Positions 15,815 to 40,737 are shown, numbered from the stretch's first letter. The stretch: 64,000 nt of DNA from Candidatus Microsaccharimonas sp. (GCA_049276535.1 JBASWP010000001.1:168241-232240); one strand, 5' to 3'. Numbers and translations: made by a program. Notes: a model not told the origin generated them from the sequence alone.

Positions 15815-15819
15815 ATCCC

Positions 15820-16648: not shown

Positions 16649-16677
16649 TTGAATAATTGTATATTTTATGCTATAAT
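16649..16677 (+). promoter_or_regulatory. Second copy of the TTGAAT-17-TATAAT promoter element
   Basis: Contains TTGAAT, a 17-bp spacer and TATAAT, sharing 'ttttatgctataata' with the 14.1 kb copy. It sits in a short AT-rich gap inside the GC-rich island. Confidence 0.5.
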
Positions 16678-16710
16678 ATACTTATTCCCTACTGAAAGGA
16701 AGTACCCGCG

Positions 16711-17799: not shown

Positions 17800-17885
17800 A
17801 GTTTTATTCCTTACTTATTGTTGACATTACACTAACTATGCTCTACGATAAGTATATACCAGTTAGTGTAAAAAAGGAAATAAGT

Positions 17886-19796: not shown

Positions 19797-19800
19797 CTGT

Positions 19801-20475: not shown

Positions 20476-20659
20476 TCTTAATTCTTAATTTGTGACTTTC
20501 GTCCTTGGTTATATTCCTATAGCCTGGACTCATCAGCATATGTCTACATATGGAGTCGTGCAGACCTGCGAGGAGGCGAAGTGAATCGCGCTCTCTCGCA
20601 GGTCTGTTAGTGTACGGGCGTTGCGGCTCGCACGGGTGGAATTACACGACTCTTGCCGG

Positions 20660-21436: not shown

Positions 21437-21457
21437 CTTGTTCGTTTCCTTTCAGGA

Positions 21458-22510: not shown

Positions 22511-22531
22511 TGCCTTGCCTTTCCGTTTTTT

Positions 22532-24403: not shown

Positions 24404-24405
24404 GG

Positions 24406-25218
24406 TTACTCCGTTTCTGTGGGTTGGGGAACGCGGCGTCCGACGATCATCGTGGTGTCATCCCGCAGGTACCCGAATTCCGGGTCCTTTTGGGGGTAGT
24501 CACGACCGATCAGCTTCAGCTCGCGCTCGATGGCAATGTGGAGGGCGTAGTACTTGTCGTCTTGCCAGAACTGCTCGATCGGTCCGACGATGCCGGACAG
24601 GCCGGGCTTTTTCTTGCCCTCGCTTGCGACCAGGTAGTCTATCCCGTCCGTCGCCAACATGAACGAATTCACGTCGGTGACATCAAACGGGGCAAACACC
24701 GGGTGCAAACGCAACAGGTCGGAATCGACCGTGGCATCCTCGCCCATCAAGCAGTACCCGATATAGGGTGGCTCGTTGTTCGGGAACGGTCCAAGGTTCG
24801 TCACGACTCCGTTGATGACGATGGTGCCGTCGCCTAGCGCAAAGAACGTGATGGTGTGGCCGTCGGTGACAAAACCGAGAAGCGTAAACAGGAAATACTG
24901 CTTGATCACTTCACGATAGTTGCCGCCCATGGCACGCACCAGCACGTCCAACTGCGAGACGACTTGCTGTTGTACGCGGCTCCACTTGATCTGGTGTTTC
25001 GGACCACTGTATGCGGCGCGGATGCTCTCGGCGAGGATCTTGACGCCCAACTGGGCGCCCACCTCGCTGTGAGCATGACTTCCGCAGCCATCAGCCACGA
25101 CTCCGACGGTCAGGTCTCCAGCCGTAAGGATAGTCCAGCTATCCTGACTGTTTAACCCGGCCCAGCGATGATCGCGACCGATCCAGCTTCCGCCAGCGAA
25201 TTGAAATTCGGCTGACAT
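24406..25218 (-). CDS. PP2C-family Ser/Thr phosphatase, island B gene 1
   Basis: 'NSQDS', 'GVVADGCGSH', 'FALGDG', 'ATDGIDYL' and 'DDTTMIV' match PPM/PP2C metal-binding motifs. A GAGGTGA ribosome-binding site precedes the start, which follows a long AT-rich leader. Confidence 0.65.
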   Translation of the reverse strand: MSAEFQFAGGSWIGRDHRWAGLNSQDSWTILTAGDLTVGVVADGCGSHAHSEVGAQLGVKILAESIRAAYSGPKHQIKWSRVQQQVVSQLDVLVRAMGGNYREVIKQYFLFTLLGFVTDGHTITFFALGDGTIVINGVVTNLGPFPNNEPPYIGYCLMGEDATVDSDLLRLHPVFAPFDVTDVNSFMLATDGIDYLVASEGKKKPGLSGIVGPIEQFWQDDKYYALHIAIERELKLIGRDYPQKDPEFGYLRDDTTMIVGRRVPQPTETE

Positions 25219-25635: not shown

Positions 25636-27033
25636 TCAAGGCTTTAACCCAATCGCTATATTCCCAGAAACAAAATCGTTCGTGCATTTCACTGGTCCAA
25701 TATTGAAATAATCTTTTTTAGCTAAGAAATCACACAGGTCGGCATGTCGGAGGACCGCATACTCTTCACCCTCAATATTTTCAAATCGATACTCAATTTG
25801 ATCACCTTCCACCGCTCGAAAATCTTTGGCGAATCGTCGAAAACGCGCCTTTGATGACAGTGACCTTAGGAATTCAGGCAGTTCGCCTGTTTCGATATCA
25901 GGATGTACGTCGTCGGGGTTCTCGCCGTCGTCTTCATTGAGAAGTGCGTAAACGATCTTGTCTTTATTATTCGGACCCACGACATCGTAATTAATATAGA
26001 CGCCGCCCGGTGCTAAAATAGCGTGCATTCGTTCAATGAAGGCGACTAATTCACTTCTTCCTAAATACGATTCCACCTCGTGGGTAAGCGCCATTGTAAT
26101 GATCGTGTCGAGGGAATTGCGAGGAAACAACGAGCTGCGCATGATATTACGTTGGTAGAAGAACATATTAGTATCGCCAAATTCACCAGCATCTTTGCGC
26201 TGCTGACAAATCTGGTATAGCGGGCGAGCTGCTTCGACTCCGTAAAAATCAGATTCGAACATTTCAGGACGCTTTGATAAAATCTTTAGTGTTTCACCAG
26301 TCGCACAACCAACATCCAGGATACGCCCCGGCTTTACGTAGTCGACGAAGTCAGCCACTTTCCGGACCGCCCCGTCTTCAAACGCCTGACGATAGGTCGT
26401 ATAATCGCGCGTTGTCGTGATATCACCATCATCACTGTCGATTAACGGATCTTGAAAGATCTCGACGATGTCATCGCCTAAACCGTACCGTTCAAATTCT
26501 TCAAAACAGACAGGGTGCATTTCATCACGAACAATTGCATTTGATCGCCACTGTGCCCCGCTTTTGATAACTTCTTCAACAACATCCCACGGACGTGGTC
26601 CTCGCTGGTGTTCAAACGTTTCATCGAACTCGGCTGAATCAATCGCAAATCCCCGTGCCACATACTGTTCGGCGACTTCCTTGGTCGAACAGACAACTAA
26701 GGTGTTTTCAGGCGTCAGATCAACTCGCCCTTTACTTTGTAGGCGTACTTCTTCAATCAGATAGTGAGCAAAATCCTTCTTCTGCGTCATATTCGTAATG
26801 CGATACACCTGCGATGGCAAGTGCTCGGCCGCACTGACAGCTTCGATAATGCCCAGCCGACGACTCCCTGTTAGTGGATTTCGTTGGGTTCCCCCATGAT
26901 TTGCACTGGTCACTGCCCACACAACCTCGGCGCGGTGCTCGATATCAGGACGCTTTAAAAGCTTCTTTAGATTATCTATCTGGAAACGTGTAACCGCTTG
27001 ATGACGCCCAGGCACCAGCAGATAGCGGTACAT
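25636..27033 (-). CDS. Two-domain protein: N-terminal uncharacterised (nucleotidyltransferase-like?) domain fused to class I SAM-dependent methyltransferase
   Basis: Motif I 'ILDVGCATGETL' of Rossmann-fold methyltransferases in the C-terminal half. N-terminal half has 'VPGRHQAVTRFQ'. Its start overlaps the stop of the downstream phosphatase gene. Confidence 0.5.
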   Translation of the reverse strand: MYRYLLVPGRHQAVTRFQIDNLKKLLKRPDIEHRAEVVWAVTSANHGGTQRNPLTGSRRLGIIEAVSAAEHLPSQVYRITNMTQKKDFAHYLIEEVRLQSKGRVDLTPENTLVVCSTKEVAEQYVARGFAIDSAEFDETFEHQRGPRPWDVVEEVIKSGAQWRSNAIVRDEMHPVCFEEFERYGLGDDIVEIFQDPLIDSDDGDITTTRDYTTYRQAFEDGAVRKVADFVDYVKPGRILDVGCATGETLKILSKRPEMFESDFYGVEAARPLYQICQQRKDAGEFGDTNMFFYQRNIMRSSLFPRNSLDTIITMALTHEVESYLGRSELVAFIERMHAILAPGGVYINYDVVGPNNKDKIVYALLNEDDGENPDDVHPDIETGELPEFLRSLSSKARFRRFAKDFRAVEGDQIEYRFENIEGEEYAVLRHADLCDFLAKKDYFNIGPVKCTNDFVSGNIAIGLKP

Positions 27034-27860
27034 TATCGGTCTTCACCCAACAGCGGCGGTGCGAAATCAGCTTGTCGTAACAACTCTGCGCCGGTAAAAC
27101 GCTGCCGGTCAGGTAACTCTACCCATGTTCCACCGTCTGGTGATTCAGTTGGTGCATCAGGGTAGACCATTCGACGCCAGCGAATCTTTTCCCTAATATC
27201 ATCAGGATCATCAGGGTTCACTCGGGTGTAATGAGTGACGCTACAATTTCGAATGGTATAGGCAGGGTCACGATCAATCGCTTCCCACTGCTCTGGTAAC
27301 ATGCGTTCTATTCCATACCTCGCGACATTGATAAAGTCGCCATGCGATACCACAATGACTCGATTATTCGCCTGTTCACGGTGAAGGGTCCCCTGAAAAT
27401 CACGGAATCGGCTATAAACGTCCGGCATACTTTCACCCCCATCAAAGCGCACATACCATGGGGTCGTTTCGTGCAATCGTACGGTTAATGGAAAGTGTGA
27501 GCGTTGTTCGGCTTTCGGAACAATACCGTATACCCCCCAACTACGCTCAACGACGCGGTCGTCAACGGTCCATTCACCAAGCTCAATGCCACCAATATAC
27601 GCAGCCGTCTCGCGGGTTCGCAGGAACGGCGAAACGTATCGCCCTTGAAACGATTCAACCCCACCTAGATTTTCGTCGAGCCATATCTTTGCCAGTATTG
27701 CCTGCTCAATCCCAAGTTTTGACAAGCGTTGTTGCCAATCAGGCCGATCATTAATTTCGGCTTCCTTTTCGTGTTCACCACCTTTTTTCGTGATCCTATG
27801 AACGGTATTTGCCTCGGACATTCCGTGACGGACAAAAACAAGATCGTTTGGCATTGGCAT
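27033..27860 (-). CDS. Histidine phosphatase superfamily (phosphoglycerate-mutase-like) protein
   Basis: 'LVFVRHGMSEAN' RHG catalytic motif and a downstream 'SHG'. Confidence 0.6.
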   Translation of the reverse strand: MPMPNDLVFVRHGMSEANTVHRITKKGGEHEKEAEINDRPDWQQRLSKLGIEQAILAKIWLDENLGGVESFQGRYVSPFLRTRETAAYIGGIELGEWTVDDRVVERSWGVYGIVPKAEQRSHFPLTVRLHETTPWYVRFDGGESMPDVYSRFRDFQGTLHREQANNRVIVVSHGDFINVARYGIERMLPEQWEAIDRDPAYTIRNCSVTHYTRVNPDDPDDIREKIRWRRMVYPDAPTESPDGGTWVELPDRQRFTGAELLRQADFAPPLLGEDR

Positions 27861-27997
27861 GGTGGTGCTCCTTTTCTTACTAATGAAAGTATACAGTTAT
27901 CGAACATAAAATGCAATTAGTGTTGACTTTACAATAAGTAGGGGGTACTATGATACTAGATAGTGTATAAAGAACACTAATTAATAAAAGGATCATT

Positions 27998-29269
27998 ATG
28001 TCAGAACTGCTCACTCTCACACCAGAACGACCATTCAACCTAAGTGAAGGGCTTGATTTCTACAAGCCGACTATGGGACAGGTTGCCCTCGAGAACTACC
28101 CCGATGCCGAGGTCACCTTTACAATGAAGAACCGTTCTGAACGATTGTTGAGCGAATTTGTGAGTGTTGATGAGCTTAACGCGCGATTCGAGGCAATCCG
28201 AGACCAAGGATTTACTCCTGAAGAAATTGCCTACTATGCCGGTTTGACCGCCCAAGATGGTTCGGCGCGATTTGACGAACCCTACCTCGATTTCCTCGCT
28301 GACCTTCGCCTCCCCCCTGTCAATGTTGGTATTAACCCTGAAACCAAAGACCTCGCGATTTCAACGACTGGCCCTTGGGCAGCGGTCAGTCTGTGGGAAA
28401 CGGTGGTTATGAGTGAAGTTAACGAACAATACTACGCCAACCTGATTGAGGCACGTGGCCTTAGTATGGAAGAAGTATGGGCAGAGGGCGATCGTCGACT
28501 CGACGAAAAAATCGCTCGACTCAAAGAACGCCCTGATATTAAATTTGCCGACTTTGGTACTCGCCGTCGCTTTAGCGCTGCTTGGCATCAACACGTCGTT
28601 GAACGATTCGCGAATGAACTTCCTGATAACTTCGTTGGCACCAGCAACCCCTACTACGCTCACAAGTTTGGTCTAAAACCAATTGGTACCTACGCCCACG
28701 AAATGCCTATGGTATACGCGGCGATAGAAGACGCCAAAAGTGGTCAACCCCTACTGGGTCACCGCAAGATGATGAAAGACTGGTTTAATCGTTATGGTAA
28801 GGATCTCTCGATTGGCTTGACTGACACCTTCGGTAGTGACTTCTTCTTTGCGGACTTCTCACAACAAGACGCAGCAGAGTGGAATGGCCTCCGCCATGAT
28901 TCAGGTAATCCGATCGACTTTGGCGAAAAAACTATCGACTTTTATATCGACAATGACATCGACCCTGAAAAAAAGACGATCGTCTTTAGTGATGGACTTA
29001 ACGTCGATAAAATGATTATATTGGCTGATCAGTTCAACGGTCGTATCAACGTCCTTGACGGTGTGGGCACTGACTTTACAAACGACATGGGACTTCCCGT
29101 TAATAATTTCGTCATGAAAGCGACTCACGCTGGCGAAAAAGACACGGTGAAGATCAGTGACGACGAAGGCAAACACACCGGTCCGATTGATATCGTTAAA
29201 CGATACCAGACCGATGCTGCCCGAGTTGTCATGCTAGCCGAAGCAATGAAAGACGGAGCCTACGTATGA
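27998..29269 (+). CDS. pncB: Nicotinate phosphoribosyltransferase
   Basis: 'LDFYKPTMGQV' (DxYKxTM hallmark). Length 423 aa and conserved 'FGTRRR' / 'HEMP' regions. Confidence 0.7.
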   Translation: MSELLTLTPERPFNLSEGLDFYKPTMGQVALENYPDAEVTFTMKNRSERLLSEFVSVDELNARFEAIRDQGFTPEEIAYYAGLTAQDGSARFDEPYLDFLADLRLPPVNVGINPETKDLAISTTGPWAAVSLWETVVMSEVNEQYYANLIEARGLSMEEVWAEGDRRLDEKIARLKERPDIKFADFGTRRRFSAAWHQHVVERFANELPDNFVGTSNPYYAHKFGLKPIGTYAHEMPMVYAAIEDAKSGQPLLGHRKMMKDWFNRYGKDLSIGLTDTFGSDFFFADFSQQDAAEWNGLRHDSGNPIDFGEKTIDFYIDNDIDPEKKTIVFSDGLNVDKMIILADQFNGRINVLDGVGTDFTNDMGLPVNNFVMKATHAGEKDTVKISDDEGKHTGPIDIVKRYQTDAARVVMLAEAMKDGAYV

Positions 29270-30933
29270 ACACGCAACTATTTGAAGCAACCCGCCGCGT
29301 TATAACCAGCGGTGAAGTCTACCGCGGTTATCCTACGACGCGCCTGACGCTCGACAAGGATAGCTTTTCCAGCGATACCCTACCAGAACTACCAAACGGG
29401 CCGTGGACAATGAATAACACTCCCCTCCCTACTGTCGAGGAATCAAAAAAATTTCTGGATGCAGGCTACAAGATTGATTCAGATGGCCGACCGCTTCATC
29501 CTTGGATTAATAGCATGATCACCGATCCTGAAGTAGGAATGGTCACCGGCAAGGGTACATACTATTTCTGGGGCCCAAATTATACGGCTGATCCTATCGT
29601 TATTACCAGCGAAGCCGTCCCCCGCGTGCTACTTATCCAACGAAGCGATACACCTCTAGGTCCTGACGGCAAACCAGTTGAACCCGTCTGGGCAATCCCT
29701 GGAGGATTTGTCGACGACGGCGAAGACCCCGAAGACAGTGCTCGTCGCGAACTGGGTGAAGAAACCGGACGCAACATAACCGAACCAGCAACGCTTCTTT
29801 ATCGAGGCGTAGTGGCCGACCTACGAACTACCGCGAACTCTTGGGCTGAAACATCTGCGTATACGTTTGTTGTTGATAAACCCTTCCCTGTCGTTGCTGG
29901 TGATGACGCCGACGACGCCTGCTGGTTTACCGAAGAAGAGTTAGCAGGAATAAAAATGCATGGATCACATGAGGTACTTGTTCGTATGGCATTTCATCCC
30001 GAGGGCGATACCACTATTCGTGATATCCTCGCCCTTCCGAAAGAATCTTTAGAAACCACCGTTATTGATGCGGGGCACATGGCCTATGATCATCGTTATG
30101 TTTCCGACGGTTCGACCCGTCTATTTGTCAAAGCACATGATGCATCTCGATTCACCGATCCAGAACGCGAAAAGCACTCTCGTCGCTATCTAAGAAAAGA
30201 ATTCTTCCTGTTCGGTCATGCCGCAAAGCAAGGGTTTACTGCCATCCCAAAACGTGTCGACTTGATTGATGACTCTATCCTAGCAATGGATGCATTTCAT
30301 CCTGATGATGGTTACTTATGGGATGCTCCTTACGACGAGCGCTTTAAACAATATTGCGAAGACATTATTGCTAAACTTGACCACCTGCAATCAATCGAAG
30401 CACCCGTTAATCCTGAATATCATGAAGATATAAAAGATACCTATACCACCTTCTGGGAAGAAGGCTGGGATGCCATTGATAATGCTTCGATGACGGCTAT
30501 TACTGATAAAATCCACCTATTATCAGCGAACTGGACAAATGACCAGAAATCCCTCGCCAGCGACCTTGCGAATTTCTTGCCACAGCTTCGAGGCACCGCG
30601 TCTCAACTTGATCGAGATGTTCCGTTATACATGGCACATAACGACGCACGTCAATCAAACATTGCTTGGCATCCCGACCAAGGAGTTAAATTGGTTGACT
30701 GGAGCTGGGGTGACGTTGCGCCAAAAGACGCTGATATCACTATGTTCCTAATTGACCTGGCAAAGTCTGGCCATGACGTATCGAAATATGCCGATCGCAT
30801 TAATCGCGATCAAGCCCTCGTCTACCTCGGTTTCTTGGTAGCACATAGCATCTGGGAAACCCGTGACGGTAGCCAAACAGTTCGTGAACACCAAGTCGCG
30901 GCCGCGGCGGCAGCGTTTTCGTTGATTCGATAA
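29266..30933 (+). CDS. Fusion protein: Nudix hydrolase + aminoglycoside-phosphotransferase-like (APH/ChoK-fold) kinase domain
   Basis: Nudix box 'GGFVDDGEDPEDSARRELGEETG' in the N-terminal half. C-terminal half has 'HNDARQSNIAWH...VDWSWGD' (Brenner HxDxxxxN ... D motif). Overlaps pncB by 4 nt. Confidence 0.55.
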   Translation: MNTQLFEATRRVITSGEVYRGYPTTRLTLDKDSFSSDTLPELPNGPWTMNNTPLPTVEESKKFLDAGYKIDSDGRPLHPWINSMITDPEVGMVTGKGTYYFWGPNYTADPIVITSEAVPRVLLIQRSDTPLGPDGKPVEPVWAIPGGFVDDGEDPEDSARRELGEETGRNITEPATLLYRGVVADLRTTANSWAETSAYTFVVDKPFPVVAGDDADDACWFTEEELAGIKMHGSHEVLVRMAFHPEGDTTIRDILALPKESLETTVIDAGHMAYDHRYVSDGSTRLFVKAHDASRFTDPEREKHSRRYLRKEFFLFGHAAKQGFTAIPKRVDLIDDSILAMDAFHPDDGYLWDAPYDERFKQYCEDIIAKLDHLQSIEAPVNPEYHEDIKDTYTTFWEEGWDAIDNASMTAITDKIHLLSANWTNDQKSLASDLANFLPQLRGTASQLDRDVPLYMAHNDARQSNIAWHPDQGVKLVDWSWGDVAPKDADITMFLIDLAKSGHDVSKYADRINRDQALVYLGFLVAHSIWETRDGSQTVREHQVAAAAAAFSLIR

Positions 30934-30949
30934 ATTCATTTATATTTTG

Positions 30950-30986
30950 GGAATTGAAAAGCCCCAGGGCTTATCAGATGCCTGGG
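30950..30986 (-). terminator. Intrinsic terminator for the flotillin-like gene
   Basis: Hairpin gccccagg/cctggggc followed on the minus strand by TTTTCAATT. A second hairpin ggggtacgt/acgtacccc at about 31033-31066 sits right after the stop. Confidence 0.5.
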
Positions 30987-31081
30987 GCGATTCGCGTACG
31001 TGACCATCGTCTCAATACAATTGTAGAGACGGTGCCGGGGTACGTCAGCGCGAGCCAACGTACCCCAGCCTCATCATGCGA

Positions 31082-32920
31082 CTACTTCTTGTCCCGCTTG
31101 CCCGGACGGACCGCGTCCCGGATGTCCCGGGCGTGGCCGAGGATCTCCGGTGCGGCCTCGGCGGCAGCCTGCAGGCCCGCGATGGCGTCATCCGCGAACG
31201 ATCCCTCGGAACCGGGCTCGACGACAGAGTCGACGGCCGGAACCACGGGTTCGGCGGGCTCCGCCAGAGCGGCAGCGGTTGCAGCGGCCGCGACGGCCGC
31301 AGTTCCCACTCTGGAGCTGGGGGACTTGGCCGAAGCCGCATCTCCCGACACCACCGGAGCCGGAACCTGCGACTGGGTCGCGGGCTCGGGCTCATCCGCA
31401 GCCGGCTTGGAAGCCGGCTGGTTGCGCAGACCGAGAGGAACGCCTCCACCTGCCTGCTCACCGCGGAGTCCCGCGACGAGCGAACCGAGCATGGCCCCCA
31501 GAGGGGCACCGCCGAGCAGCTGAGACTGCAGGTCACCCTGCTGCATCAGCTTGGGCAGGTCGCCGAGGAAGTCGGACAGCACGTTGCCGCCGCCTTCCCG
31601 AGAACCCGCACCCATGTCGACGATCGTGACCTTCTCGCCGATGTTGCCGACGACCTTGGCGGTCTCGGTGGCGATGGTGACACGCATGTTGCTCTCGATC
31701 TCGGCGATGCGGACCTGGAGGTTCGCACCGTCGTTGGCCGCGAGCGCTTCCGCCATCAGGCGTTCGCGCTCGGCCTCGGCCTTACCGAGTGCGAGGATCG
31801 CAGCGGCTTCGGCCTCACCCTTCGCCTGAGTGGCGTCGGCTTCGGCACGACCACGCGCACGGACCTGCTCGGCCTCGGCGTTGGTGGTGATACCGATGGC
31901 GTCAGCCTTACCCTTCGCCTCGATCGTCACCGCCTCGGCCGCAGCCGACGCTTGGGTCCTGGCGACCGTACCGGCCGCCTGTGCGTCGATCTCGCTCTTG
32001 CGAGCCGAGGACTCCGCCTCGATCTCGAGCGTCTTGCGAGCGGTCTCGGCCTGAGTAACCGCCACCTCCTGTTGGGCGGTGGCGGCGGCCTTCTCCTGCT
32101 GCGCACGAACGACAGTGACCTGGCCCTGTGCAGCTGCGGTCTCCTGGTCGAACTCCGCCTGGCGGAGCGCGACATCGCGATCCTTCTCGGCGACGACCAG
32201 CTTCTTGTCGAGCATGGCCGTCTCCGAGACCTGCTCGGATTCGGCCTTCGCCACGTTGATCGCCTTCTCGGCCGCAGCCGTGAGGACCGCGGCACTGCGC
32301 CGCTTCTCCTCGCGGTCTTCGGCCGCCGAGTTGCTGTAGTACTCGTTCCGGTCGCTGACCTCGGCGATGTTCAGCGAGACCAGCTGGAAGCCCAGGTCCA
32401 GCATCTTCGGCGCGACGTTCGTCGTGACCTGGCTGCTGAACTCGTCCTTCTTGGTGAGCACGTCATCCGGCGTCATCGTCGCGACGACCTGACGAATCTC
32501 TCCGTCAAGCGTCAGCTTGAGCGACTTGACGGTGTCGTCGAAGCCGCCACCGATGTAGCCGACGATGGCCTTCTCGAGCGCGCCGTCGGTCTTCGTGTCG
32601 GGACGGATCTGGGCGGTCCACTTGACGACGATCGGCACCTTGGTGCTGGTCTGCGTCTCGTAGTCGTCCGACTGGATCGTCATGTTGCCCAGCGGGAACC
32701 GCTCGCTCTTGCGAAGGAACGAGACGTAGGCGCCGCCGGACTTGATGATCCGAGGGCCCTTCTTCCCGCCGGTAATCACCAGCGCCTCGTCGGCATCGGT
32801 GATCCGATAGCCGATCTTGAAGACGATGAATCCGACGGCGACGACCACGAGGACGCCGATGACACCCACGATGATCGCGGGTCCTTCGAGCAGGCTCTGC
32901 AGCCACGCGAAGATGTCCAT
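31082..32920 (-). CDS. Flotillin-like SPFH/band-7 protein with long Ala/Glu-rich coiled coil, island C
   Basis: N-terminal TM then an SPFH-like region ('VITGGKKGPRIIKSGGAYVSF', 'VPIVVKWTAQIRP'). Followed by an EA-rich coiled coil ('AEAEQVRARGRAEADATQAKGEAEAAAILALGKAEAERERL') and a flexible Ala/Pro tail. GC-rich. Confidence 0.65.
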   Translation of the reverse strand: MDIFAWLQSLLEGPAIIVGVIGVLVVVAVGFIVFKIGYRITDADEALVITGGKKGPRIIKSGGAYVSFLRKSERFPLGNMTIQSDDYETQTSTKVPIVVKWTAQIRPDTKTDGALEKAIVGYIGGGFDDTVKSLKLTLDGEIRQVVATMTPDDVLTKKDEFSSQVTTNVAPKMLDLGFQLVSLNIAEVSDRNEYYSNSAAEDREEKRRSAAVLTAAAEKAINVAKAESEQVSETAMLDKKLVVAEKDRDVALRQAEFDQETAAAQGQVTVVRAQQEKAAATAQQEVAVTQAETARKTLEIEAESSARKSEIDAQAAGTVARTQASAAAEAVTIEAKGKADAIGITTNAEAEQVRARGRAEADATQAKGEAEAAAILALGKAEAERERLMAEALAANDGANLQVRIAEIESNMRVTIATETAKVVGNIGEKVTIVDMGAGSREGGGNVLSDFLGDLPKLMQQGDLQSQLLGGAPLGAMLGSLVAGLRGEQAGGGVPLGLRNQPASKPAADEPEPATQSQVPAPVVSGDAASAKSPSSRVGTAAVAAAATAAALAEPAEPVVPAVDSVVEPGSEGSFADDAIAGLQAAAEAAPEILGHARDIRDAVRPGKRDKK

Positions 32921-33177
32921 GTATTTCTCCTTGGGATAGGTGTTGCATGAATGGTGGGATGAACGTAACTAGTTACGTATGTAGTTTCATGATGAATTGT
33001 GATGATCGTTCGTCGCCCACCAGCGAATTTTGCAATTTTACATCTTTTTTCATAAAAAGTCAAGGGTTGAGAGGTGTTAATTTGATAATAACGCGATGTT
33101 AATTAACTTGCAAAAAATACATAAATATGATATATTACCTCTGTTGTTTTACTGGACACTACCGGAAGGCGTAAGAC

Positions 33178-34182
33178 ATGGACCTGTTCATCGGAATTGT
33201 CATCGGCCTCGCCCTCGCGGGCGGCGTCTTTGGCATTGTTGTTCTCATCAAGCGGCGCAACGCTGCCTGGGAGAACAGCTCCACCAGTTCGTCGCGAGAC
33301 GAGCGAGAAGATCGACGTGACACCTCCCGCGAGGATGCCGAGCGGTCGCTCGCCACGCGCGAGGCGGAAGCGAAGAATGCCGCGTATCGTCAGATGCGCG
33401 ACAAGTACGACGCTGCCACCACGCGCGAGGAGTACGTCGCTCTGCAGACCGAGCTCGAGGCCGGACGATCGAAGCTCGCCGAGGCGGACTATGACTCGCT
33501 GGTCAGCCAGATCGAGAGCGAGATCGAAGCGCTGGACGAGGAAGCTCGAGCCCGCGCCGAGATCGAGCCCAAGCTGGCGGCCTTCGCGGCACTGAAGAAC
33601 GTCACGGACAAGGAGGAGCTCTTCACTAAGCTTCACCCCATGTTCGCGACCGACGAAACGCCGGTGATCACCTACGACGAGCTGGAAGAGCACGCCGAAG
33701 AAGGCGACCTCGACTGGCTCGACACCGCCTACGACGAGGCGCTCATCGAGCACCTCAAGGCGTTGTTGATCGCCGCTCGCGAGGGCACGGTCGCCGACTA
33801 CAAGGCGGTCACCAAGCTGTGGGACGAGCTCGAGGACTACAGCAGCAACACGTACGACGACAGGGATGACCTGGTCAGCCAGAACCTCGCAACCGAGTGG
33901 AACGAGATGATCGTCCGCTTCAAGCGCGAGCCTGACTACGACGAGGACCTGTACGGGCTCGACGACCTCGACGAGGACGGTTACAAGGCGATCATCAAGA
34001 AGGCCCGTGAAGACCACGACCTTCTCAGCCTGCGGCTGCTGTTCATCATCGTGAACGAATGGCAGGATTCGGATTTCACGGACCTGCTGGTCGCCAGCTT
34101 CACCGAAGAGCTTCAGGCCCAGCTGGACGCCCAGTACCTCGCCCTCGGGTTCACGCCCAACGAGCAGGAACGAAGCGTTTAG
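33178..34182 (+). CDS. Membrane-anchored, highly acidic coiled-coil protein, function unknown (island C)
   Basis: TM helix 'MDLFIGIVIGLALAGGVFGIVVLI' followed by an acidic region. It diverges from the flotillin gene across an AT-rich promoter region at 32930-33175. Confidence 0.45.
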   Translation: MDLFIGIVIGLALAGGVFGIVVLIKRRNAAWENSSTSSSRDEREDRRDTSREDAERSLATREAEAKNAAYRQMRDKYDAATTREEYVALQTELEAGRSKLAEADYDSLVSQIESEIEALDEEARARAEIEPKLAAFAALKNVTDKEELFTKLHPMFATDETPVITYDELEEHAEEGDLDWLDTAYDEALIEHLKALLIAAREGTVADYKAVTKLWDELEDYSSNTYDDRDDLVSQNLATEWNEMIVRFKREPDYDEDLYGLDDLDEDGYKAIIKKAREDHDLLSLRLLFIIVNEWQDSDFTDLLVASFTEELQAQLDAQYLALGFTPNEQERSV

Positions 34183-34302
34183 CCACGCCGGCTCGAAAAC
34201 AGCAACAACTCGTCGCTAATACCGGCGATACGGAGGGCGGCTCGGGATTTCCCCGGGCTGCCCTCCAGCAACACCCACGCGGGTGTTATTTTATTTCAAA
34301 AA

Positions 34303-34331
34303 TTGACAATAGTATAGATAATTGTTATAAT
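34303..34331 (+). promoter_or_regulatory. Perfect-consensus sigma70 promoter TTGACA-17-TATAAT
   Basis: TTGACA at 34303-34308, a 17-bp spacer, TATAAT at 34326-34331. A GAGGA ribosome-binding site and a GTG start at 34368 follow. Confidence 0.6.
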
Positions 34332-34367
34332 ATACATACTGTTCACGAGACGAGATGAGGAATAATC

Positions 34368-34754
34368 GTGTTGATCCCCAAAGGAGACGGAACGTTCACG
34401 AGCGGACCGTTAGACATCATCCTGATTTACCACAACGTCGAAGCGGACACCTTCCATCCCGCCTTCTACCGCGAGCACGGCATGCCGGGCCCGCCGGAAC
34501 TGGCGAGTGAGCAGGACTTCGTCCGGCTCATGAGTGACAAGCACCACACCGATGGGCTCCCCACCCTCGAAGAGGCTCAGGAGTTCGTTCGAACGACCAT
34601 GCAACCCACGTTCGGGGTGCCTGACCGCAACATCGTCCTCGACCCGCCCTATCCATGGCACGGTCAGATCGGTGATGTGATGATCGTGCAGAACTGGCTG
34701 AAGGTCGGACCTGATGCCACGTTCCGCGAGGTCAACGTCAACGTCACTACATGA
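34368..34754 (+). CDS. Hypothetical protein (island C), GTG start
   Basis: 128-aa GC-rich ORF downstream of a consensus promoter and ribosome-binding site. No recognisable motif. Confidence 0.4.
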   Translation: MLIPKGDGTFTSGPLDIILIYHNVEADTFHPAFYREHGMPGPPELASEQDFVRLMSDKHHTDGLPTLEEAQEFVRTTMQPTFGVPDRNIVLDPPYPWHGQIGDVMIVQNWLKVGPDATFREVNVNVTT

Positions 34755-34832
34755 TCGAAGGTCCACCCTTCGCACCTGGGACACTCTCCCGTGCGGGGGG
34801 TGTTTCAGTTTTTGGCGAAGAAATTATTCTAT

Positions 34833-35813
34833 TTAGGCGTCAATTGCTTGACCAAATAAACTCACTAATTCAGCTCGAACCTCACGGGCACGTCGCTCAA
34901 GATCGTGTTCGGCTTCACTGCCAATAACAAGTGGTGAGCGACAGTAACCGATCGCTTTTTCACCCAAAATAGTGCGCATCATTGCTTTTGTTGGAAGTGG
35001 GTTTGGAGTATCGGCTGATGTCTCGAAGTTATATGAACCTTGCAGAGCAGCATTAATCGATTCTGCCATTTGTCCATCGCCAGTATTGTATGCATCATAC
35101 ATTGCAGCCATTTCACGAGCTGCCCAATGTCCCGCAACCGATATCGCTCCAACTGACCCAACCCGTGCAAGTGCGAGGTTCTTTTCGTCATCACCGCTAT
35201 ACACGACAAAGTCAGACGGTAAATCAGAACGTCGTAGTAATGTCGCAGTCCTGGTTGGATCACCTGCCGCATCTTTCAACCCACGAATATGTGGGAATTT
35301 CTGTGCTAGCTCAACCATCGTATCGTGCTCAATACCACGACCTGTACGAACAGGGATGTCATACATAACAATCGGCAAATCGGTCGCATCAGCAACCTGA
35401 CTGAAATAGTCAATGATGCCACTCTGCGGTGGACGGTTATAGTACGGTGACACGACGAGTAGACCGTTCGCTAACTGATTATCAGTGGCGTATTTCGCTA
35501 ACTCGACCGCTTCCCTTGTGTCATTTGAGCCAGTTCCAGCGAGAATTGGGACATCCACCGCTTCGCGTACAGTCCAAAACAATTCATGTTGTTCTTCGTG
35601 GGTAATAGTAGGGCTTTCACCGGTCGTGCCGGCAACAACCAGACCTTCCGAACCAGTCTGAACCAGATACTGCGCCAGCTTCCCTGCTGCACGCAGATCT
35701 ATGCGGCCATTTTCGGCAAACGGCGTCACCATAGCAGTCATTACCCGACCAAAAGGAGCCTCTTTCATCCGAGGTGCTGCAGGATAACTTTCTGGACTTG
35801 GTCGAAGCGTCAT
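34833..35813 (-). CDS. dapA: 4-hydroxy-tetrahydrodipicolinate synthase
   Basis: 'MVTPFAENGRIDL' ... 'VVAGTTGES' and DapA/NAL-family TIM-barrel motifs. 326 aa, which includes an N-terminal extension. Confidence 0.75.
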   Translation of the reverse strand: MTLRPSPESYPAAPRMKEAPFGRVMTAMVTPFAENGRIDLRAAGKLAQYLVQTGSEGLVVAGTTGESPTITHEEQHELFWTVREAVDVPILAGTGSNDTREAVELAKYATDNQLANGLLVVSPYYNRPPQSGIIDYFSQVADATDLPIVMYDIPVRTGRGIEHDTMVELAQKFPHIRGLKDAAGDPTRTATLLRRSDLPSDFVVYSGDDEKNLALARVGSVGAISVAGHWAAREMAAMYDAYNTGDGQMAESINAALQGSYNFETSADTPNPLPTKAMMRTILGEKAIGYCRSPLVIGSEAEHDLERRAREVRAELVSLFGQAIDA

Positions 35814-35897
35814 TATGGGGGTTTATTATATCTTTAGATAGCTAATTTGCAAGCATAAGCAAATGATGTTCCAATAAGAAATGCTATAATAAACACA

Positions 35898-36374
35898 GTG
35901 AATAAAAAGATATTATTTATTGTCATTGGTCTGCTCGTTTTAATCTCTGCCGCAGTCGCCTATATTCTAATTACCCCGAATAAGGGTACGGTTGCCGAAG
36001 AAATGACTAAAGAGACATCAACCTCGTCGGAAGAAACCACGCCACCTGCACAGACGAACACTCAACCAGGTGTGTATACCGACTACTCCGAAGAAGCTAT
36101 CGCAACTACAAAAGGCACTAAACTGCTCTTTTTCCATGCTTCTTGGTGCCCACAGTGTCGACAGATCGAGGCAAGCATAAAGGCTGACGGAATCCCGACT
36201 GGCGTTACTGTATTCAAGATCGACTACGATTCAAACCAGAAACTTCGGGAACGATATGGTGTTACCTTACAAACAACTTTCGTAAAAATAGATGATGCCG
36301 GTAATAAAATCGCCAGCTATGTCGCTTACGAAGAACCTCAATTCAGCTCGGTTGAACGCGAGCTGCTGCGATGA
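35898..36374 (+). CDS. Membrane-anchored thioredoxin-like protein (WCPQC)
   Basis: N-terminal TM. 'FFHASWCPQCRQ' is a CxxC thioredoxin-fold motif. Forms an operon with ccdA. Confidence 0.65.
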   Translation: MNKKILFIVIGLLVLISAAVAYILITPNKGTVAEEMTKETSTSSEETTPPAQTNTQPGVYTDYSEEAIATTKGTKLLFFHASWCPQCRQIEASIKADGIPTGVTVFKIDYDSNQKLRERYGVTLQTTFVKIDDAGNKIASYVAYEEPQFSSVERELLR

Positions 36375-37114
36375 TTGAGTTATTCATCGTTTCATTCGTC
36401 GCCGGAATTCTGACCGTGCTTGCCCCTTGTATTCTACCCCTGCTCCCGGTGATCATTGGCGGAAGTTCATTGCATCAAAATAACGACAAAAAAGTATCGC
36501 TGAAACACCCATTAGTTATTATCGCCAGTCTTATCGTCTCGATCATCCTTTTTACACTACTTCTTAAAGCGACGACCGCGCTTCTCGGTGTTCCGACAAC
36601 GGTATGGGCGGTCATTTCTGGCGGCATCGTACTATTGTTTGGTATAACCCTGCTCTTCCCTGTCCTATGGGAAAAATTCATGGTCGCCACACGGTTAAAC
36701 CTCCTCGCTAACCGTTTCATGGGTCAATCGCAAGGAAAAAGTGGGATAAAAAAAGACATCCTTCTTGGTGCTGCGCTTGGACCGATTTTTAATAGCTGCA
36801 GCCCAACCTACGCCCTGATCGTTGCTGTTATTCTCCCTGCTTCCTTCGTATCAGGCGTTGGGTACCTGATCGCGTATTGTATTGGCCTGGGCACGATTCT
36901 TTTCTTGATTAGTATCTTTGGTCGCGTGCTGGTAAATAAAATGAAGTGGATGAGCAACCCTCGCGGAGTATTTCAGAAAGTTATCGGCAGCCTATTTATC
37001 ATCGTAGGTATAGCGGTGATCTTCGGGCTGGAAAAGCAAGTGCAGACCTATGTTTTGGAAAACGGCTGGTACGATCCGATTATGCGGATCGAAGAATCTT
37101 TCCAACTGAAGTAG
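36371..37114 (+). CDS. ccdA: Cytochrome-c-biogenesis/DsbD-like thiol-disulfide transporter CcdA
   Basis: 'LAPCILPLLPVIIGG' and a second conserved Cys region 'NSCSPTY'. Polytopic. Overlaps the thioredoxin-like gene by 4 nt. Confidence 0.7.
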   Translation: MIELFIVSFVAGILTVLAPCILPLLPVIIGGSSLHQNNDKKVSLKHPLVIIASLIVSIILFTLLLKATTALLGVPTTVWAVISGGIVLLFGITLLFPVLWEKFMVATRLNLLANRFMGQSQGKSGIKKDILLGAALGPIFNSCSPTYALIVAVILPASFVSGVGYLIAYCIGLGTILFLISIFGRVLVNKMKWMSNPRGVFQKVIGSLFIIVGIAVIFGLEKQVQTYVLENGWYDPIMRIEESFQLK

Positions 37115-37246
37115 AGGTAATATCGAGCGTTACTACCCAAGAAGCATTCAAAAGTTATATGAAATACGCACTCTATCAAGGAACTAAGTTTGAAAAGGCA
37201 CAACTAGTACGGAATGTCACTTTGGGCCTAAAGTTGCACGACAGGA

Positions 37247-38914
37247 CTATAGTTGTCCAAGCCTATTTTCAAAAGTAGCATTCAGAGCTTGTAACATAAC
37301 AGGCATCTCAGTCTCGAACTGCTCTTTGGTGATTGCGTCACCAACGCGTCTTGCTACGCTTACTTTACGGCCGCTACTAAATGCCGCGACGTCACTAGCG
37401 CTAAATGTCCAGGTCTCCATATATGTTCTGCTGTCCGACGCATCACTACATTGATCATCATGTTTATTCGGATAATACTCCTCTAGTGAGCCTACCCCTA
37501 GTTCATGAAGCTGATCATCTTTTGAAAAACTAGGTAACCTTGCGATCAGCGCAGCAAACTGCTCTGGAGACACCTTATTAGAATCGACTACTACTTGGTA
37601 TCTTTTATCATAAATAGTTGCCGAAAGGGGTGTGAATATCTTTTCAAGAGCACTGATTAACTGCACAGCTTCGTGCATATCTCCTTTCGCCGGGAGAAGC
37701 TTTACGCTTGCCCATTCTGGATAGTGGCGAGCTATTACACGCGTAAGAAACTCAACCTCCGAAGCGCCTTCAACTATTAAGAAGTTCGTGGGCAAAAGTA
37801 GGTCAGAAGGGCTCCCACCAAGCAAGTCGTAAATAACATTCTGCTTAGCCAACTTATCTTGTGGCTCGACGGTTGTGATACCATCCTCATACTTTTGGAC
37901 CTTCAATGTAACTTGTTTGTCTCCTAAATTCTCTTCCGCAATGAGCACAGACGAATGTGTGGTAAGAAAAATTTGATCACCATTCTGCGCCAAGTCTTCA
38001 AGTGCACGCTTCAAATGTCGCTGTGCTCTCGGATGAAGGTGCAATTCGCCCTCGTCAATTAAGAAAATGAAATTCTTTATGTCGGCGTTATTGCGCCTAT
38101 AATCCGCGAAGGTCTGTATGATAGCAAGCATTAAGGCTCGCTGCATACCATCGCCTTTTTCGTATGCTTCCGTGACTACGCCATCATCAACTTTTGCAGA
38201 GAAGTTCTTGAATAGGTCATTCAGATCGGGATTCTTTACCTCAAACTCCACATTCGTAGTTTCAGGAAACTGTTTCTGGAGATAAAGCTGCACACTTTGT
38301 GCAAGCTTATTTAATTCATCATAAATTTTGGAGTCTTTCGAACCAAAGAGCTCATAAAATTCATCGATGAATTTTTTATACTTCTCGTCTCCACTCGCGA
38401 GTATTTCGCTTAGGACACCCGACAACATTGTGCCGATCTGTGTGGTTTTGCCGTACTTTAAAACTTCCCTTAGATTATTCTCCGTTTGTACGAATTCGAT
38501 TGAAGGAAGAAAGTCATTTAGAGCTCTATCAAACCCAACCCCTGGATCATCGTATGTACCGTCAGGTTTGAGAATTTTTCTATAGGTCTTTCCTGCCTCA
38601 TCGACAGTACGAACAAGAGTAACGGTATCTAGTTCACCTATCTTGCTATCGAGTGTTTTCTGATTCTTTTCATTTTTCATCTTTGACAGGGCAGTCTTGA
38701 TGTCATCAAATTCAACTTCGATGTAAGGTGCTCTTGAAGTGCCTTTACGTTTATGTTGATCGACCGAGCCACCAAAATAGAACCAATTGATTGCATTTAA
38801 GAAATTTGTTTTACCGTGGTTGTTTTGTCCAACAAGTACGTTCAAGCTTGAGACACTAATCTCTATATCTTCTATAGAACGGAAATCTCTTACCAACACT
38901 CTTGTTATATTCAT
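37247..38914 (-). CDS. OLD-family nuclease (N-terminal ABC-type ATPase + C-terminal Toprim)
   Basis: 'LNVLVGQNNHGKTNFLNAI' Walker A right after 'VRDFRSIEDIEI'. 'LIDEGELHLHP' (Walker B/D-loop), 'FLTTHSSVLI' (H-loop). C-terminal 'FLIVEGASEVEF' and 'VVVDSN' are Toprim-like acidic motifs. AT-rich gene. Confidence 0.65.
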   Translation of the reverse strand: MNITRVLVRDFRSIEDIEISVSSLNVLVGQNNHGKTNFLNAINWFYFGGSVDQHKRKGTSRAPYIEVEFDDIKTALSKMKNEKNQKTLDSKIGELDTVTLVRTVDEAGKTYRKILKPDGTYDDPGVGFDRALNDFLPSIEFVQTENNLREVLKYGKTTQIGTMLSGVLSEILASGDEKYKKFIDEFYELFGSKDSKIYDELNKLAQSVQLYLQKQFPETTNVEFEVKNPDLNDLFKNFSAKVDDGVVTEAYEKGDGMQRALMLAIIQTFADYRRNNADIKNFIFLIDEGELHLHPRAQRHLKRALEDLAQNGDQIFLTTHSSVLIAEENLGDKQVTLKVQKYEDGITTVEPQDKLAKQNVIYDLLGGSPSDLLLPTNFLIVEGASEVEFLTRVIARHYPEWASVKLLPAKGDMHEAVQLISALEKIFTPLSATIYDKRYQVVVDSNKVSPEQFAALIARLPSFSKDDQLHELGVGSLEEYYPNKHDDQCSDASDSRTYMETWTFSASDVAAFSSGRKVSVARRVGDAITKEQFETEMPVMLQALNATFENRLGQL

Positions 38915-39003
38915 AAGTACAGTATAACAAACCCAATAGCATGACTTTAAGGAGTTCTAGACCCACTTACCCTATAGAGGTCGAGGGCACATGGGATTCG
39001 AAC

Positions 39004-39032
39004 TAAAAAACGACCAAAATCGGTCGTTTTTT
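39004..39032. terminator. Bidirectional intrinsic terminator
   Basis: AAAAAA-acgacc-aaaat-cggtcgt-TTTTTTATT. The hairpin is flanked by A and T runs. Confidence 0.5.
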
Positions 39033-39270
39033 ATTACTTTGATTTGCACCAACACTTTAGACCTATTCGGGTCACGCTTGGTGTAAATCGTGGCTGGGGA
39101 TGAGGGATATCGCAGTAAACTGCTCCTCCGTTCATTCGCTCAAAAATGTAAACACTTTTTCGCTTCATTCACTTCACCGAACCCTCCGTCGTTTTGCTTC
39201 GCAAAACCGGGGGTTCAAATCATACGTCCTAAATCAAGAAAATTGACCCGCAAAAGCAGGTCAATTTTCT

Positions 39271-39345
39271 TGGCTGGGGATGAGGGATTCGAACCCCCGA
39301 ATGTCGGCACCAAAAGCCGATGCCTTACCACTTGGCGAATCCCCA
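39271..39345 (-). tRNA. tRNA-Gln (anticodon UUG)
   Basis: Reverse complement reads 'TGGGGATTCGCCAAGTGGTAAGGCATCGGCTTTTGGTGCCGACATTCGGGGGTTCGAATCCCTCATCCCCAGCCA'. It has U1-A72, anticodon loop tTTTGgt, a canonical T-loop and an encoded CCA, and is close to E. coli tRNA-Gln. Confidence 0.8.
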
Positions 39346-39455
39346 GTAAGTGCACCTAAGGATTGTACACTAACCGAGGTGATCTCTCAAGTGTTAGGTG
39401 CTGACTAGATATAAAAATAAGCCCCGGTCGGGGCTTATTTAAGAATGTATCTAGA

Positions 39456-39974
39456 CTACGCTTTTTTCGCTTTGTGTTTAACGGTATGTACAAATTGTCC
39501 GTGAATTTCGAACAAGAAGTACCCGCTAATAGCGATACCGATAGCACCGAATAGAATACCGGTGATAAAGCCAAAGACGCTAAAGCTAAGTACTGCACCC
39601 AGTACCACTGACACTACGTTTAGTAGCCAGCTAGCGAATAGGATCACCCAACCCTTTTTCTGACCTGCTTTGAGGGGTTTTACTGCCATCGCCATCAACA
39701 ATACCTGTAGAACGAGGAAGACGACGCCCACAATTGCACCAACCAAGCTACTCACCGTCGCAGTCGGTGCGTAGATTGCGTAGGCGCTCATGAGGGCAAG
39801 AAGCGTAAAGATTCCGCCAATTGCTACCAGTCCACCGATCGCTGACAAGATTGTTCCGATCAGGACAATCCACCATACGTTCTGACCCAACCATTTCTGC
39901 CCAGCCACAGGAAGGTGCGGGACACTCTTCACCCAACCATGAATGGTCGACTCAAGTTTATTTAAGATATCCAT
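39456..39974 (-). CDS. Polytopic membrane protein, function unknown
   Basis: 172-aa hydrophobic ORF with several TM helices. Confidence 0.4.
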   Translation of the reverse strand: MDILNKLESTIHGWVKSVPHLPVAGQKWLGQNVWWIVLIGTILSAIGGLVAIGGIFTLLALMSAYAIYAPTATVSSLVGAIVGVVFLVLQVLLMAMAVKPLKAGQKKGWVILFASWLLNVVSVVLGAVLSFSVFGFITGILFGAIGIAISGYFLFEIHGQFVHTVKHKAKKA

Positions 39975-40015
39975 GTCATAACTCCTTAATTACTTAGTTT
40001 AATCATACGACCGAA

Positions 40016-40615
40016 CTAGCGTTTCGACAACTGTTTTTTTGCTGAAGTCTTAACAGATCCAGGCCACATTCCCCAACTACTCCAAGCAGCAATGATCGCC
40101 AAGCCAATACTGACGAATACCGCCCACCAGCCAGGCATCACCGCTACGGCCGTACCCAGGAAACCAATATTGTCAGTGATTCCGTCCTGCAGTGCCAGAT
40201 TCGTCGTGATAAACAGCCATATGCCCGCCACTAACCATCCGCAGCCCATACTGAAATAGCGAAAGGCTGGACTGAGGGGCATGCGCAGCAAGAATGGCAA
40301 TGCAAACACCTCTACAGATACCAGCAGCGCCGCTAAAAAGACCGAGAATTGCTCGCCGCCAGGCAATCCAAAGCCGATGATCAACGCGGGGAATTCATCG
40401 TAGGTAAACAGTTGAGCCACGACGAATATGACAATTACGATGGCGTAGAAAAGAGCGATTCGTTTCGCGTCCTTTGTTTTTGGTGTTGGTGCTTTCGTAA
40501 CAGTAGGGAAGATACTCATGCTTGCAGTATAATACCCCACTCTCCTTCTTAGCAAATTGTTGTTATTTTTATCAATATGCTTGCGCTTTACTGGTTCGTC
40601 CTTTACAGTAAACAC
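40016..40615 (-). CDS. Polytopic membrane protein, function unknown
   Basis: 199-aa ORF with several TM helices and a basic N-terminus. Confidence 0.4.
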   Translation of the reverse strand: MFTVKDEPVKRKHIDKNNNNLLRRRVGYYTASMSIFPTVTKAPTPKTKDAKRIALFYAIVIVIFVVAQLFTYDEFPALIIGFGLPGGEQFSVFLAALLVSVEVFALPFLLRMPLSPAFRYFSMGCGWLVAGIWLFITTNLALQDGITDNIGFLGTAVAVMPGWWAVFVSIGLAIIAAWSSWGMWPGSVKTSAKKQLSKR

Positions 40616-40737
40616 AAGCGAAAGTTACAAAAATAAACATAACTCCAAAAAAACATATGTTGTGACTGACTCGCTCTACGATATCCACCACAACGCAGTA
40701 CGTCCCCTCTAGGGGGCGTTTCTGTTTCTTGATATAT

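Follow-up and report, generated by a model that had tools for sequence, protein, structure and literature searches.

A divergent flotillin and a lineage-restricted acidic membrane protein encoded head to head in a GC-rich island of a Candidatus Microsaccharimonas genome

We examined a stretch of 64,000 nucleotides (the window, hereafter) from Candidatus Microsaccharimonas sp. (GCA_049276535.1, JBASWP010000001.1:168241-232240), a metagenome-assembled genome (MAG) of the Saccharibacteria in the candidate phyla radiation (CPR). It carries a GC-rich island of three genes: a flotillin on the minus strand, a very acidic membrane protein (hereafter the partner) encoded divergently on the plus strand, and an orphan gene for a protein of 128 amino acids (aa). 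An earlier note, drawn from the sequence alone, had described the island in these terms, and the compositional part of its claim is well founded. In 1-kb bins between positions 31001 and 35000 the GC content is 0.69, 0.62, 0.58 and 0.55, compared with about 0.47 nearby, and GC content at third codon positions (GC3) reaches 0.843 in the flotillin, 0.848 in the partner and 0.775 in the 128-aa gene, versus 0.39-0.53 in flanking genes, placing the three genes 3.8 to 4.7 robust standard deviations above the window median (0.474, robust standard deviation 0.079). The excess is limited to coding sequences, with only 36% GC in the spacer between flotillin and partner. WAO28_01080 and WAO28_01085 from the Candidatus Microsaccharimonas sp. 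MAG are 100% identical to the 334-aa partner and the 128-aa protein, respectively, and the genes around suit a small epibiont genome (NAD salvage, DapA, Trx/DsbD, TrmD, KH, S16, RNase III). An assembly chimera was ruled out by the presence of the same junctions in independent ENA, JGI and Logan assemblies, and expression-linked codon bias was ruled out as the cause of high GC3 by the low GC3 of the S16, TrmD and ATP-synthase genes. The features of the flotillin-partner unit are given below by position in the window, with homologous loci elsewhere designated by L numbers.

30952-34301, no strand: flotillin-partner cassette, 3.35 kb, a blastn block with ~83% nucleotide identity to L001 5866-9107
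30956-30993, minus strand: intrinsic-terminator-like hairpin, GCCCCAGG...CCUGGGGC, then UUUUC
31034-31069, minus strand: strong hairpin with a 16-bp stem directly after the flotillin stop (minimum free energy, MFE, -62.6 kcal/mol, z -5.2 versus shuffles)
31082-32920, minus strand: divergent p-flotillin (SPFH2-type), 612 aa, assigned from profile, PDB sequence and composition matches
32921-33177, no strand: AT-rich divergent control region, 257 bp, 36% GC, with near-invariant blocks in five lineages
32986-33012, minus strand: conserved leader block in the ~105-nt flotillin leader, CGAACGATCATCACAATTCATCATGAA in the flotillin sense
33035-33063, minus strand: flotillin promoter, TTGACT-17-TAAAAT, both hexamers kept in the window, L001, L009, L011 and L086
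33103-33136, plus strand: partner promoter candidates, TTAACT-17-TATGAT or TTGCAA-17-TATATT with TG, in a region conserved in L001 and L011
33178-34182, plus strand: flotillin-associated acidic membrane protein (the partner), 334 aa
34270-34287, plus strand: terminator-like hairpin and T-run after the partner gene

Judged by its sequence, the product of the minus-strand gene (612 aa) is a true p-flotillin, though a divergent one. It consists of a hydrophobic anchor at residues ~3-42, a Band_7/SPFH domain at 40-219, an Ala/Glu-rich coiled-coil region extending to ~458, and a variable Ala/Gly/Pro tail. This is the architecture that the earlier note had recognized, and profile searches bear it out: Band_7 (Pfam PF01145) is covered as a whole profile by residues 40-219 (E 3.1e-17; 63.6 bits, cutoff 23.6), and the NCBIfam FloT profile aligns with residues 18-455 over its positions 4-452 of 477 (E 2e-38). 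In phmmer searches against the PDB, human flotillin-2 (9bq2_A) matches residues 43-419 (E 9e-26) and human flotillin-1 residues 43-458 (E 8e-22), with the QmcA assemblies also among the solved structures matched. Kyte-Doolittle windows of 19 residues scoring above 1.6 have their starts between residues 3 and 24 and peak at residue 16 (3.24), and residues 1-40, the predicted membrane anchor before SPFH, are rich in V/I/G/L; residues 220-460 contain 23% Ala and 12% Glu. The curated cutoff of the FloT equivalog model NF058507 is missed (132.7 bits versus 700), and Pfam Flot (PF15975), which is present in the more distant relatives P0114-P0120, was not reported at E <= 0.1, indicating a divergent subfamily rather than a FloT orthologue. 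Anchor, SPFH/Band_7 domain and long Ala/Glu coiled coil are shared with FloT/YuaG of B. subtilis, YqiK of E. coli and eukaryotic flotillin-1/-2, with direct homology to the human proteins across ~415 residues; unlike FloT/YqiK, the window flotillin has an extra Ala/Gly/Pro tail of ~150 aa. A search of the protein collection did not recover its exact sequence, perhaps owing to a different gene call. A plus-strand open reading frame (ORF) of 624 aa at 31076-32950 was dismissed as a shadow cast by the GC-rich flotillin gene, since it is the minus strand that shows the Band_7 homology; it is longer than the true gene and could mislead gene callers, and a similar antisense ORF of 623 aa lies over GC-rich genes at 20621-22492 (plus strand).

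The same flotillin subfamily is common in MAGs of Saccharibacteria, Clostridia and Coriobacteriia, and 29 of the 60 flotillin loci found bear Saccharibacteria, Nanosynbacter or Nanosyncoccaceae titles. The window protein belongs to a small soil clade, with identities of 80% to L001/L002/L003, 62% to L009/L010, 58% to L011/L012 and 57% to L086. A neighbor-joining (NJ) tree places this clade with one unassigned sequence and one from an Actinomycetaceae MAG, and not with flotillins from gut and oral Saccharibacteria. The gut, rumen and oral flotillins (such as those of Nanosynbacter MAGs), although of the same subfamily and widespread in the phylum, are only 31-37% identical to the window flotillin and fall into a clade of their own, together with Clostridiales sequences; GC3 in these genes is generally nearer to that of their own genomes, though it is 0.58-0.69 in several, and no partner gene is adjacent. 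SPFH2 genes normally share an operon with an NfeD2 homologue (YuaF/YqiJ), and 17 genomes have SPFH2 without NfeD2 (PMC2636767), so that a flotillin lacking NfeD represents a known minority state. No NfeD match was present among the neighboring genes scanned against Pfam (27033-30933 and 33178-41391). The window flotillin is monocistronic, with its own promoter and its own terminators, and in place of the co-transcribed NfeD2 that is the norm for SPFH2 it has a divergent, non-NfeD neighbor.

That neighbor, the partner, has a net charge of -43 and a pI of 4.3. It starts with a predicted transmembrane (TM) helix followed by KRR, continues with a disordered and variable Ser/Arg/Glu linker at residues ~32-48, and ends in an all-alpha domain at 50-325 with a net charge of -42, in which the motifs EWNEMIVRFKRE and LGF.P.E.ERSV are conserved. 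The KRR after the TM helix, read by the positive-inside rule, suggests that the C-terminal domain is cytoplasmic. In an AlphaFold2 model (pLDDT 85.8) the protein is entirely helical, with a compact domain of ~13 helices for which there was no fold match. The earlier description as an acidic, TM-anchored coiled-coil protein therefore holds for its acidity and N-terminal hydrophobic segment, but the protein, as modelled, is not mainly coiled coil. As had been supposed, neither the partner nor the 128-aa protein belongs to a recognizable family: no relative was found in Pfam, NCBIfam, PHROGs or PDB sequences, and no family in PADLOC, where the partner gave only a spurious match to the JetC coiled coil (E 0.0085). 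A profile search among 1.84 billion cluster representatives recovered 33 partner clusters, nearly all 300-340 aa long and with the same layout. Membership in a defense system found no support, PADLOC having no match for the flotillin either, and nor did an origin from phage or plasmid: IMG/VR held no relatives of either protein, PHROGs gave no matches, and no plasmid matched by protein or DNA. Like NfeD/YuaF/YqiJ, the partner is a small membrane-anchored protein encoded beside an SPFH gene and inherited or transferred with it. NfeD proteins, however, end in a beta-barrel of the OB-fold type, and their genes are co-transcribed with SPFH (PMC2636767, PMC4208085), whereas the partner is all-alpha, very acidic and divergently transcribed, and the NfeD profiles in Pfam and NCBIfam did not match it at E <= 0.1.

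Gene contexts were recovered for nine partner lineages, namely the window and eight others. In four of them the partner stands head to head with a flotillin of the soil clade, 242-259 bp apart: besides the window, these are L001/L002/L003 (80% identity to the window flotillin and 77% to the window partner), L011/L012 (58% and 45%) and L086 (57% and 45%). The possibility, raised by the earlier note, that the acidic protein is just an ordinary conserved neighbor of floT in the donor lineage agrees with its recurrence within the soil Saccharibacteria clade, but not with its absence near the outgroup flotillins L014, L074 and L077. In more distant soil Saccharibacteria (upstream regions of L004, L005 and L007), a partner homologue is found in a conserved FMN_red - Zip - 218-aa block, and the L007 homologue (L007/L008 9013-9777) adjoins a heliorhodopsin gene, near a cytochrome oxidase operon.

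The spacer between the two genes matches the AT-rich divergent promoter region of ~250 bp that had been predicted. A promoter consensus scan yielded 9 sigma-70-like sites versus 0.9 expected, among them that of the flotillin and the one before the 128-aa gene. The conserved elements of the spacer comprise a TTAACAC block, a -35 hexamer TTGAC(T/A), a -10 hexamer TAAAAT, AAATTCGC at the predicted start, and the leader block CGAACGATCATCACAATTCATCATG; these promoter and leader blocks are near-invariant across five flotillin lineages, while the proteins are only 57-84% identical. L009 retains them without a partner, and the blocks thus belong to the flotillin gene. With two copies of TCATCA at a distance of 11 nt, the leader block at 32986-33012 is a candidate for an operator or a leader signal. 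The motif does not recur in the window and, of the loci retrieved by the time of that search, only those of this flotillin clade have it, upstream of the gene; a variant precedes the flotillin of L086, a locus fetched later. A wider regulon was not found, as a metagenome scan returned the same contigs and four chance matches. A structured RNA leader or riboswitch was ruled out (4 pairs without covariation in RNAalifold, MFE z-score -0.74, no Rfam match), and a protein-binding site or a sequence-level leader signal is more likely. The flotillin leader also contains a perfect 16-bp palindrome, ACGTAACTAGTTACGT, at 32961-32976, which is only partly conserved in other lineages. Downstream, the two hairpins reported after the flotillin stop were recovered at 31034-31069 and 30956-30993, the latter ~20 nt from the stop of a convergent Nudix-kinase gene. 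Each of the three genes in the island has its own terminator-like hairpin and promoter-like sites, arguing for three separate transcription units.

To place the flotillin-partner pair in time relative to its carriers, we compared four-fold degenerate sites between the window and L002, using the Jukes-Cantor (JC) distance at these sites as a proxy for dS. Four housekeeping genes (TrmD, KH, S16 and RNase III, 81-86% identical in aa) have a four-fold identity of only 0.32 (288 sites; saturation 0.26), corresponding to a JC distance of at least 1.75. In contrast, four-fold identity is 0.69 for the flotillin (84% aa identity, 290 sites, JC ~0.41) and 0.61 for the partner (78% aa identity, 117 sites, JC ~0.56), with Fisher p values against the housekeeping set of 2e-18 and 2e-7, respectively. 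Where both genomes have G/C, 93% of the sites are identical, and a shared GC bias is therefore not the explanation. Low divergence next to saturated housekeeping genes implies that the cassette alleles are much younger than the genomes carrying them, and the equally low values for both genes imply that they were transferred together; on these sequence comparisons, the cassette appears to have been exchanged laterally among related soil Saccharibacteria lineages, or commonly acquired in recent times. The flotillin NJ tree pairs the window with L001/L002, and housekeeping synonymous sites put L002 nearer to L009 and L087 than to the window. In the L002 copy of the cassette, changes from G/C to A/T outnumber the reverse by 22 to 4, compared with 7 to 4 in the window copy, a pattern that fits decay toward the composition of the host. 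GC3 has stayed at 0.74-0.89 in all five clade flotillins, though the deeper alleles are near mutual synonymous saturation. A compositional donor, a point that the earlier note had proposed to test, could not be assigned: the nearest flotillins outside the clade are ~52% identical at most and not GC-richer, and relatives of the partner and the 128-aa protein occur only on a few Saccharibacteria-like contigs. The signs of decay and the conflict at synonymous sites lead us to favor a GC-rich reservoir that has not been sampled (a lineage or an element) over a gene-specific process.

The cassette block spans the region from the terminator below the flotillin to ~120 nt beyond the partner stop, and its left end is also conserved in L009 and L011. 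Its right side faces a tRNA gene, with two further features:

39088-39108, no strand: direct repeat of the tRNA-Gln 3' end (TGGCTGGGGATGAGGGAT), 18 nt, 180 nt from the tRNA copy at 39268-39288
39271-39345, minus strand: tRNA-Gln(ttg), with the 3' end facing the cassette

In L011 and L001/L002 this tRNA-Gln lies 148-175 nt from the 3' end of the partner gene, and in the window an insert of ~5 kb, with the 128-aa gene, DapA, Trx, DsbD and Old nuclease, separates the two. On the other side of the tRNA, the window shares the block tRNA-Gln - 172 aa - 199 aa - TrmD - KH - S16 - RNase III with its relatives. The differing gene content, together with the copy of the tRNA 3' end, identifies the locus as a variable tRNA-linked slot, and the repeat itself looks like the scar of an att-type integration site. 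Shared with tRNA-associated genomic islands are the position on the 3' side of a tRNA, the deviant composition, the variable content that includes defense genes (Old, NERD), the duplicated tRNA 3' end, and a gene history conflicting with that of the host genome; unlike such islands, the cassette is made up of just two genes and their terminators. The Old-family ATPase/nuclease gene, an anti-phage defense gene of low GC content (37247-38914, minus strand; PADLOC Old E 3e-65; Pfam AAA_15), stands between the cassette and tRNA-Gln, and a NERD-domain gene occupies the equivalent slot in L009. The tRNA anticodon is TTG in the window, L009 (4813-4887) and L011 (6500-6574), and CTG in L001 (9164-9238), L002 (4975-5049) and L087 (4318-4392), representing an anticodon switch at an orthologous locus.

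The third gene of the island, beyond the right end of the cassette, has the following features:

34303-34331, plus strand: perfect TTGACA-17-TATAAT promoter (12/12 in the consensus scan) with TG, for the 128-aa gene
34368-34754, plus strand: orphan 128-aa protein with GTG start, a separate GC-rich gene outside the cassette
34776-34808, plus strand: terminator-like hairpin and T-run after the 128-aa gene, conserved with the gene in L075

The promoter and the GTG start are as first read; the start is backed by homologues that open with the same MLIP residues, in one case from an ATG codon. There are only four such homologues (4 clusters). Those in L075/L076 (77% identical) lie behind an adenine-glycosylase gene, without a flotillin or partner in the vicinity, and are also GC3-rich (0.72 versus ~0.42); the gene and its terminator are conserved in L075, but the promoter is not. 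The other three flotillin-partner pairs lack the 128-aa gene, which, to judge from these contexts, is an independent orphan and not part of the flotillin module. Of the earlier idea that three genes were imported as a unit, what survives is that the flotillin and the acidic protein behave as a transferable pair, the 128-aa gene being unlinked elsewhere.

Our preferred explanation, which we consider reasonably probable, is that the GC-rich island combines two independent units, an exchanged flotillin-partner cassette (30952-34301) and an unrelated orphan (34303-34808). The first would comprise a divergent flotillin and a Saccharibacteria-restricted, single-pass acidic protein, both read outward from the 257-bp region and bounded by terminators at both ends; it would have reached a variable region 3' of tRNA-Gln by lateral exchange or from a common unsampled GC-rich source, and would now be decaying toward the composition of its host. 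The flotillin would insert its N-terminal hydrophobic segment into the membrane and, by analogy with the flotillin-1/2 and QmcA assemblies, may oligomerize through the Ala/Glu coiled coil into rings or cages on the cytoplasmic face. The co-regulated partner, presumably tethered to the same face by its TM helix, would be the most plausible client or adaptor to fill the place that is usually NfeD's. The second unit would be the orphan gene with its own promoter and terminator. A stronger version, in which the partner is a dedicated replacement of NfeD and the cassette a self-contained membrane-organizing unit circulating among soil Saccharibacteria epibionts from an unsampled GC-rich reservoir, is offered only tentatively, as it is rather less likely than not to hold.

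Several observations weigh against an exchanged cassette with a functional pairing. The acidic protein co-occurs with a flotillin in the four paired lineages, but in the other five (L004, L005/L006, L007/L008, L013 and L087) it has no adjacent flotillin. Conversely, the flotillin lacks a partner in L009 and in all more distant relatives; the L009 flotillin has lost its partner, which is replaced by a NERD gene and two genes of 468 aa and 63 aa. Only four genes, all of a single syntenic block, enter the housekeeping comparison, the trees are no more than NJ trees, and parsimony polarization with GC-rich outgroups is biased toward calling changes from G/C to A/T. Neither a donor of high GC content nor GC-rich surroundings of the cassette came to light, and GC3 is lower in the outgroup flotillins. 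Finally, there is no tRNA-end repeat at the cassette ends, the 18-nt repeat bracketing only 180 bp; no complete att pair delimits the cassette, and no integrase or other mobility gene was detected among the genes at 27033-41391 scanned against Pfam.

Some of these points fit an alternative in which the cassette has long been inherited vertically within the tRNA-Gln/TrmD neighborhood, its high GC3 being maintained by a gene-specific process such as a hot spot of GC-biased gene conversion (gBGC) or codon/mRNA selection. In the window, L001/L002, L009 and L087, either the pair or a single member of it is flanked by the tRNA-Gln - 172 aa - 199 aa - TrmD block, the persistence of high GC3 in five flotillin alleles despite near-saturation of the deeper ones would be expected, as would the invisibility of a donor, and flotillin synonymous divergence between L002 and L009 does resemble that of housekeeping genes. 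However, vertical residence does not agree with the four-fold identities of 0.69 and 0.61 against 0.32, the excess of G/C to A/T changes in L002 speaks for decay and not for maintenance, and the low GC3 of ribosomal and ATP-synthase genes shows that the effect is not linked to expression. To our knowledge, moreover, a GC3 shift from ~0.45 to 0.85 far exceeds the gBGC effects described in bacteria. We regard this alternative as unlikely, though it is the one that retains most weight next to the exchanged cassette.

Still less probable is a recent joint import of all three genes from a GC-rich donor, such as the actinobacterial host of the epibiont. Saccharibacteria live on Actinomycetota, the GC3 values of 0.78-0.85 against 0.47 would suit such a donor, and in the NJ tree the soil-clade flotillins group with Actinomycetaceae and Coriobacteriia sequences rather than with those of gut/oral Saccharibacteria. 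Yet the nearest actinobacterial flotillin is 48% identical with a GC3 of 0.50, the 128-aa gene travels separately, and relatives of the partner and the 128-aa protein are confined to 33 and 4 clusters, respectively, with all fetched contexts (eight partner lineages besides the window, and one for the 128-aa gene) being moderate-GC, Saccharibacteria-like contigs. Nor is a clade-conserved control region with 36% GC the signature of an actinobacterial intergenic region, and the data lend no support to an actinobacterial import of the partner or of the 128-aa gene. An equally improbable alternative, that the flotillin and the acidic protein have no functional link and became neighbors only via a shared tRNA-Gln integration hot spot, draws on the variability of the slot (Old nuclease, DapA, Trx and DsbD in the window, NERD and the 468-aa gene in L009) and on the solitary partners, one of which (L087) is at the same slot, but is countered by the constant head-to-head order, 242-259 bp spacing and conserved blocks in four lineages spanning 57-84% flotillin identity, by the low synonymous divergence common to both genes, and by the prediction that both proteins are membrane-anchored with cytoplasmic domains.

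Flotillins are conserved membrane scaffolds, the bacterial clients of which are poorly defined, and ultra-small epibionts depend on the membrane interface with their host; flotillins are barely mentioned for Saccharibacteria, both words occurring together, in the texts searched, only in a preprint and its published version. What is new here is not the flotillin itself, which is ordinary for non-specialists, but its association, on an apparently laterally exchanged cassette in CPR bacteria, with a lineage-specific partner that is not NfeD. The recurrent partner provides a concrete candidate for a client or adaptor, with a confidently predicted new all-alpha domain, and the strongly conserved control region points to a dedicated regulator. 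If the stronger version proposed above were true, this would be the first mobile flotillin module, and the first class of non-NfeD SPFH partners, in CPR. A two-gene cassette beside a tRNA and seemingly younger than its genomes would be direct evidence of gene flow among uncultured CPR lineages, and raises the question of the origin of GC-rich orphan genes in CPR.

Further genes of this kind were observed both in the window and elsewhere. Two more clusters of GC3-rich genes (GC3 0.71-0.90), at 14270-17133 and 20660-25218, consist mostly of orphans with no Pfam family, apart from a gene with weak similarity to protein kinases (22532-24403) and a PP2C phosphatase (24406-25218). Both clusters may come from the same unsampled GC-rich source as the flotillin cassette. 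Additional orphan genes with a GC3 of 0.78-0.94 lie beside the flotillin-partner pair in L086 (40-411 and 5646-7118) and L011 (10378-11307), so that GC-rich orphans cluster in several lineages. NAD-related genes are concentrated at 17838-20475 and 27998-30933 in the window and include a NadE-type NAD synthase, an NrtR-like Nudix regulator and NAPRTase; a 555-aa Nudix plus kinase-like fusion from this group is directly convergent with the flotillin gene.

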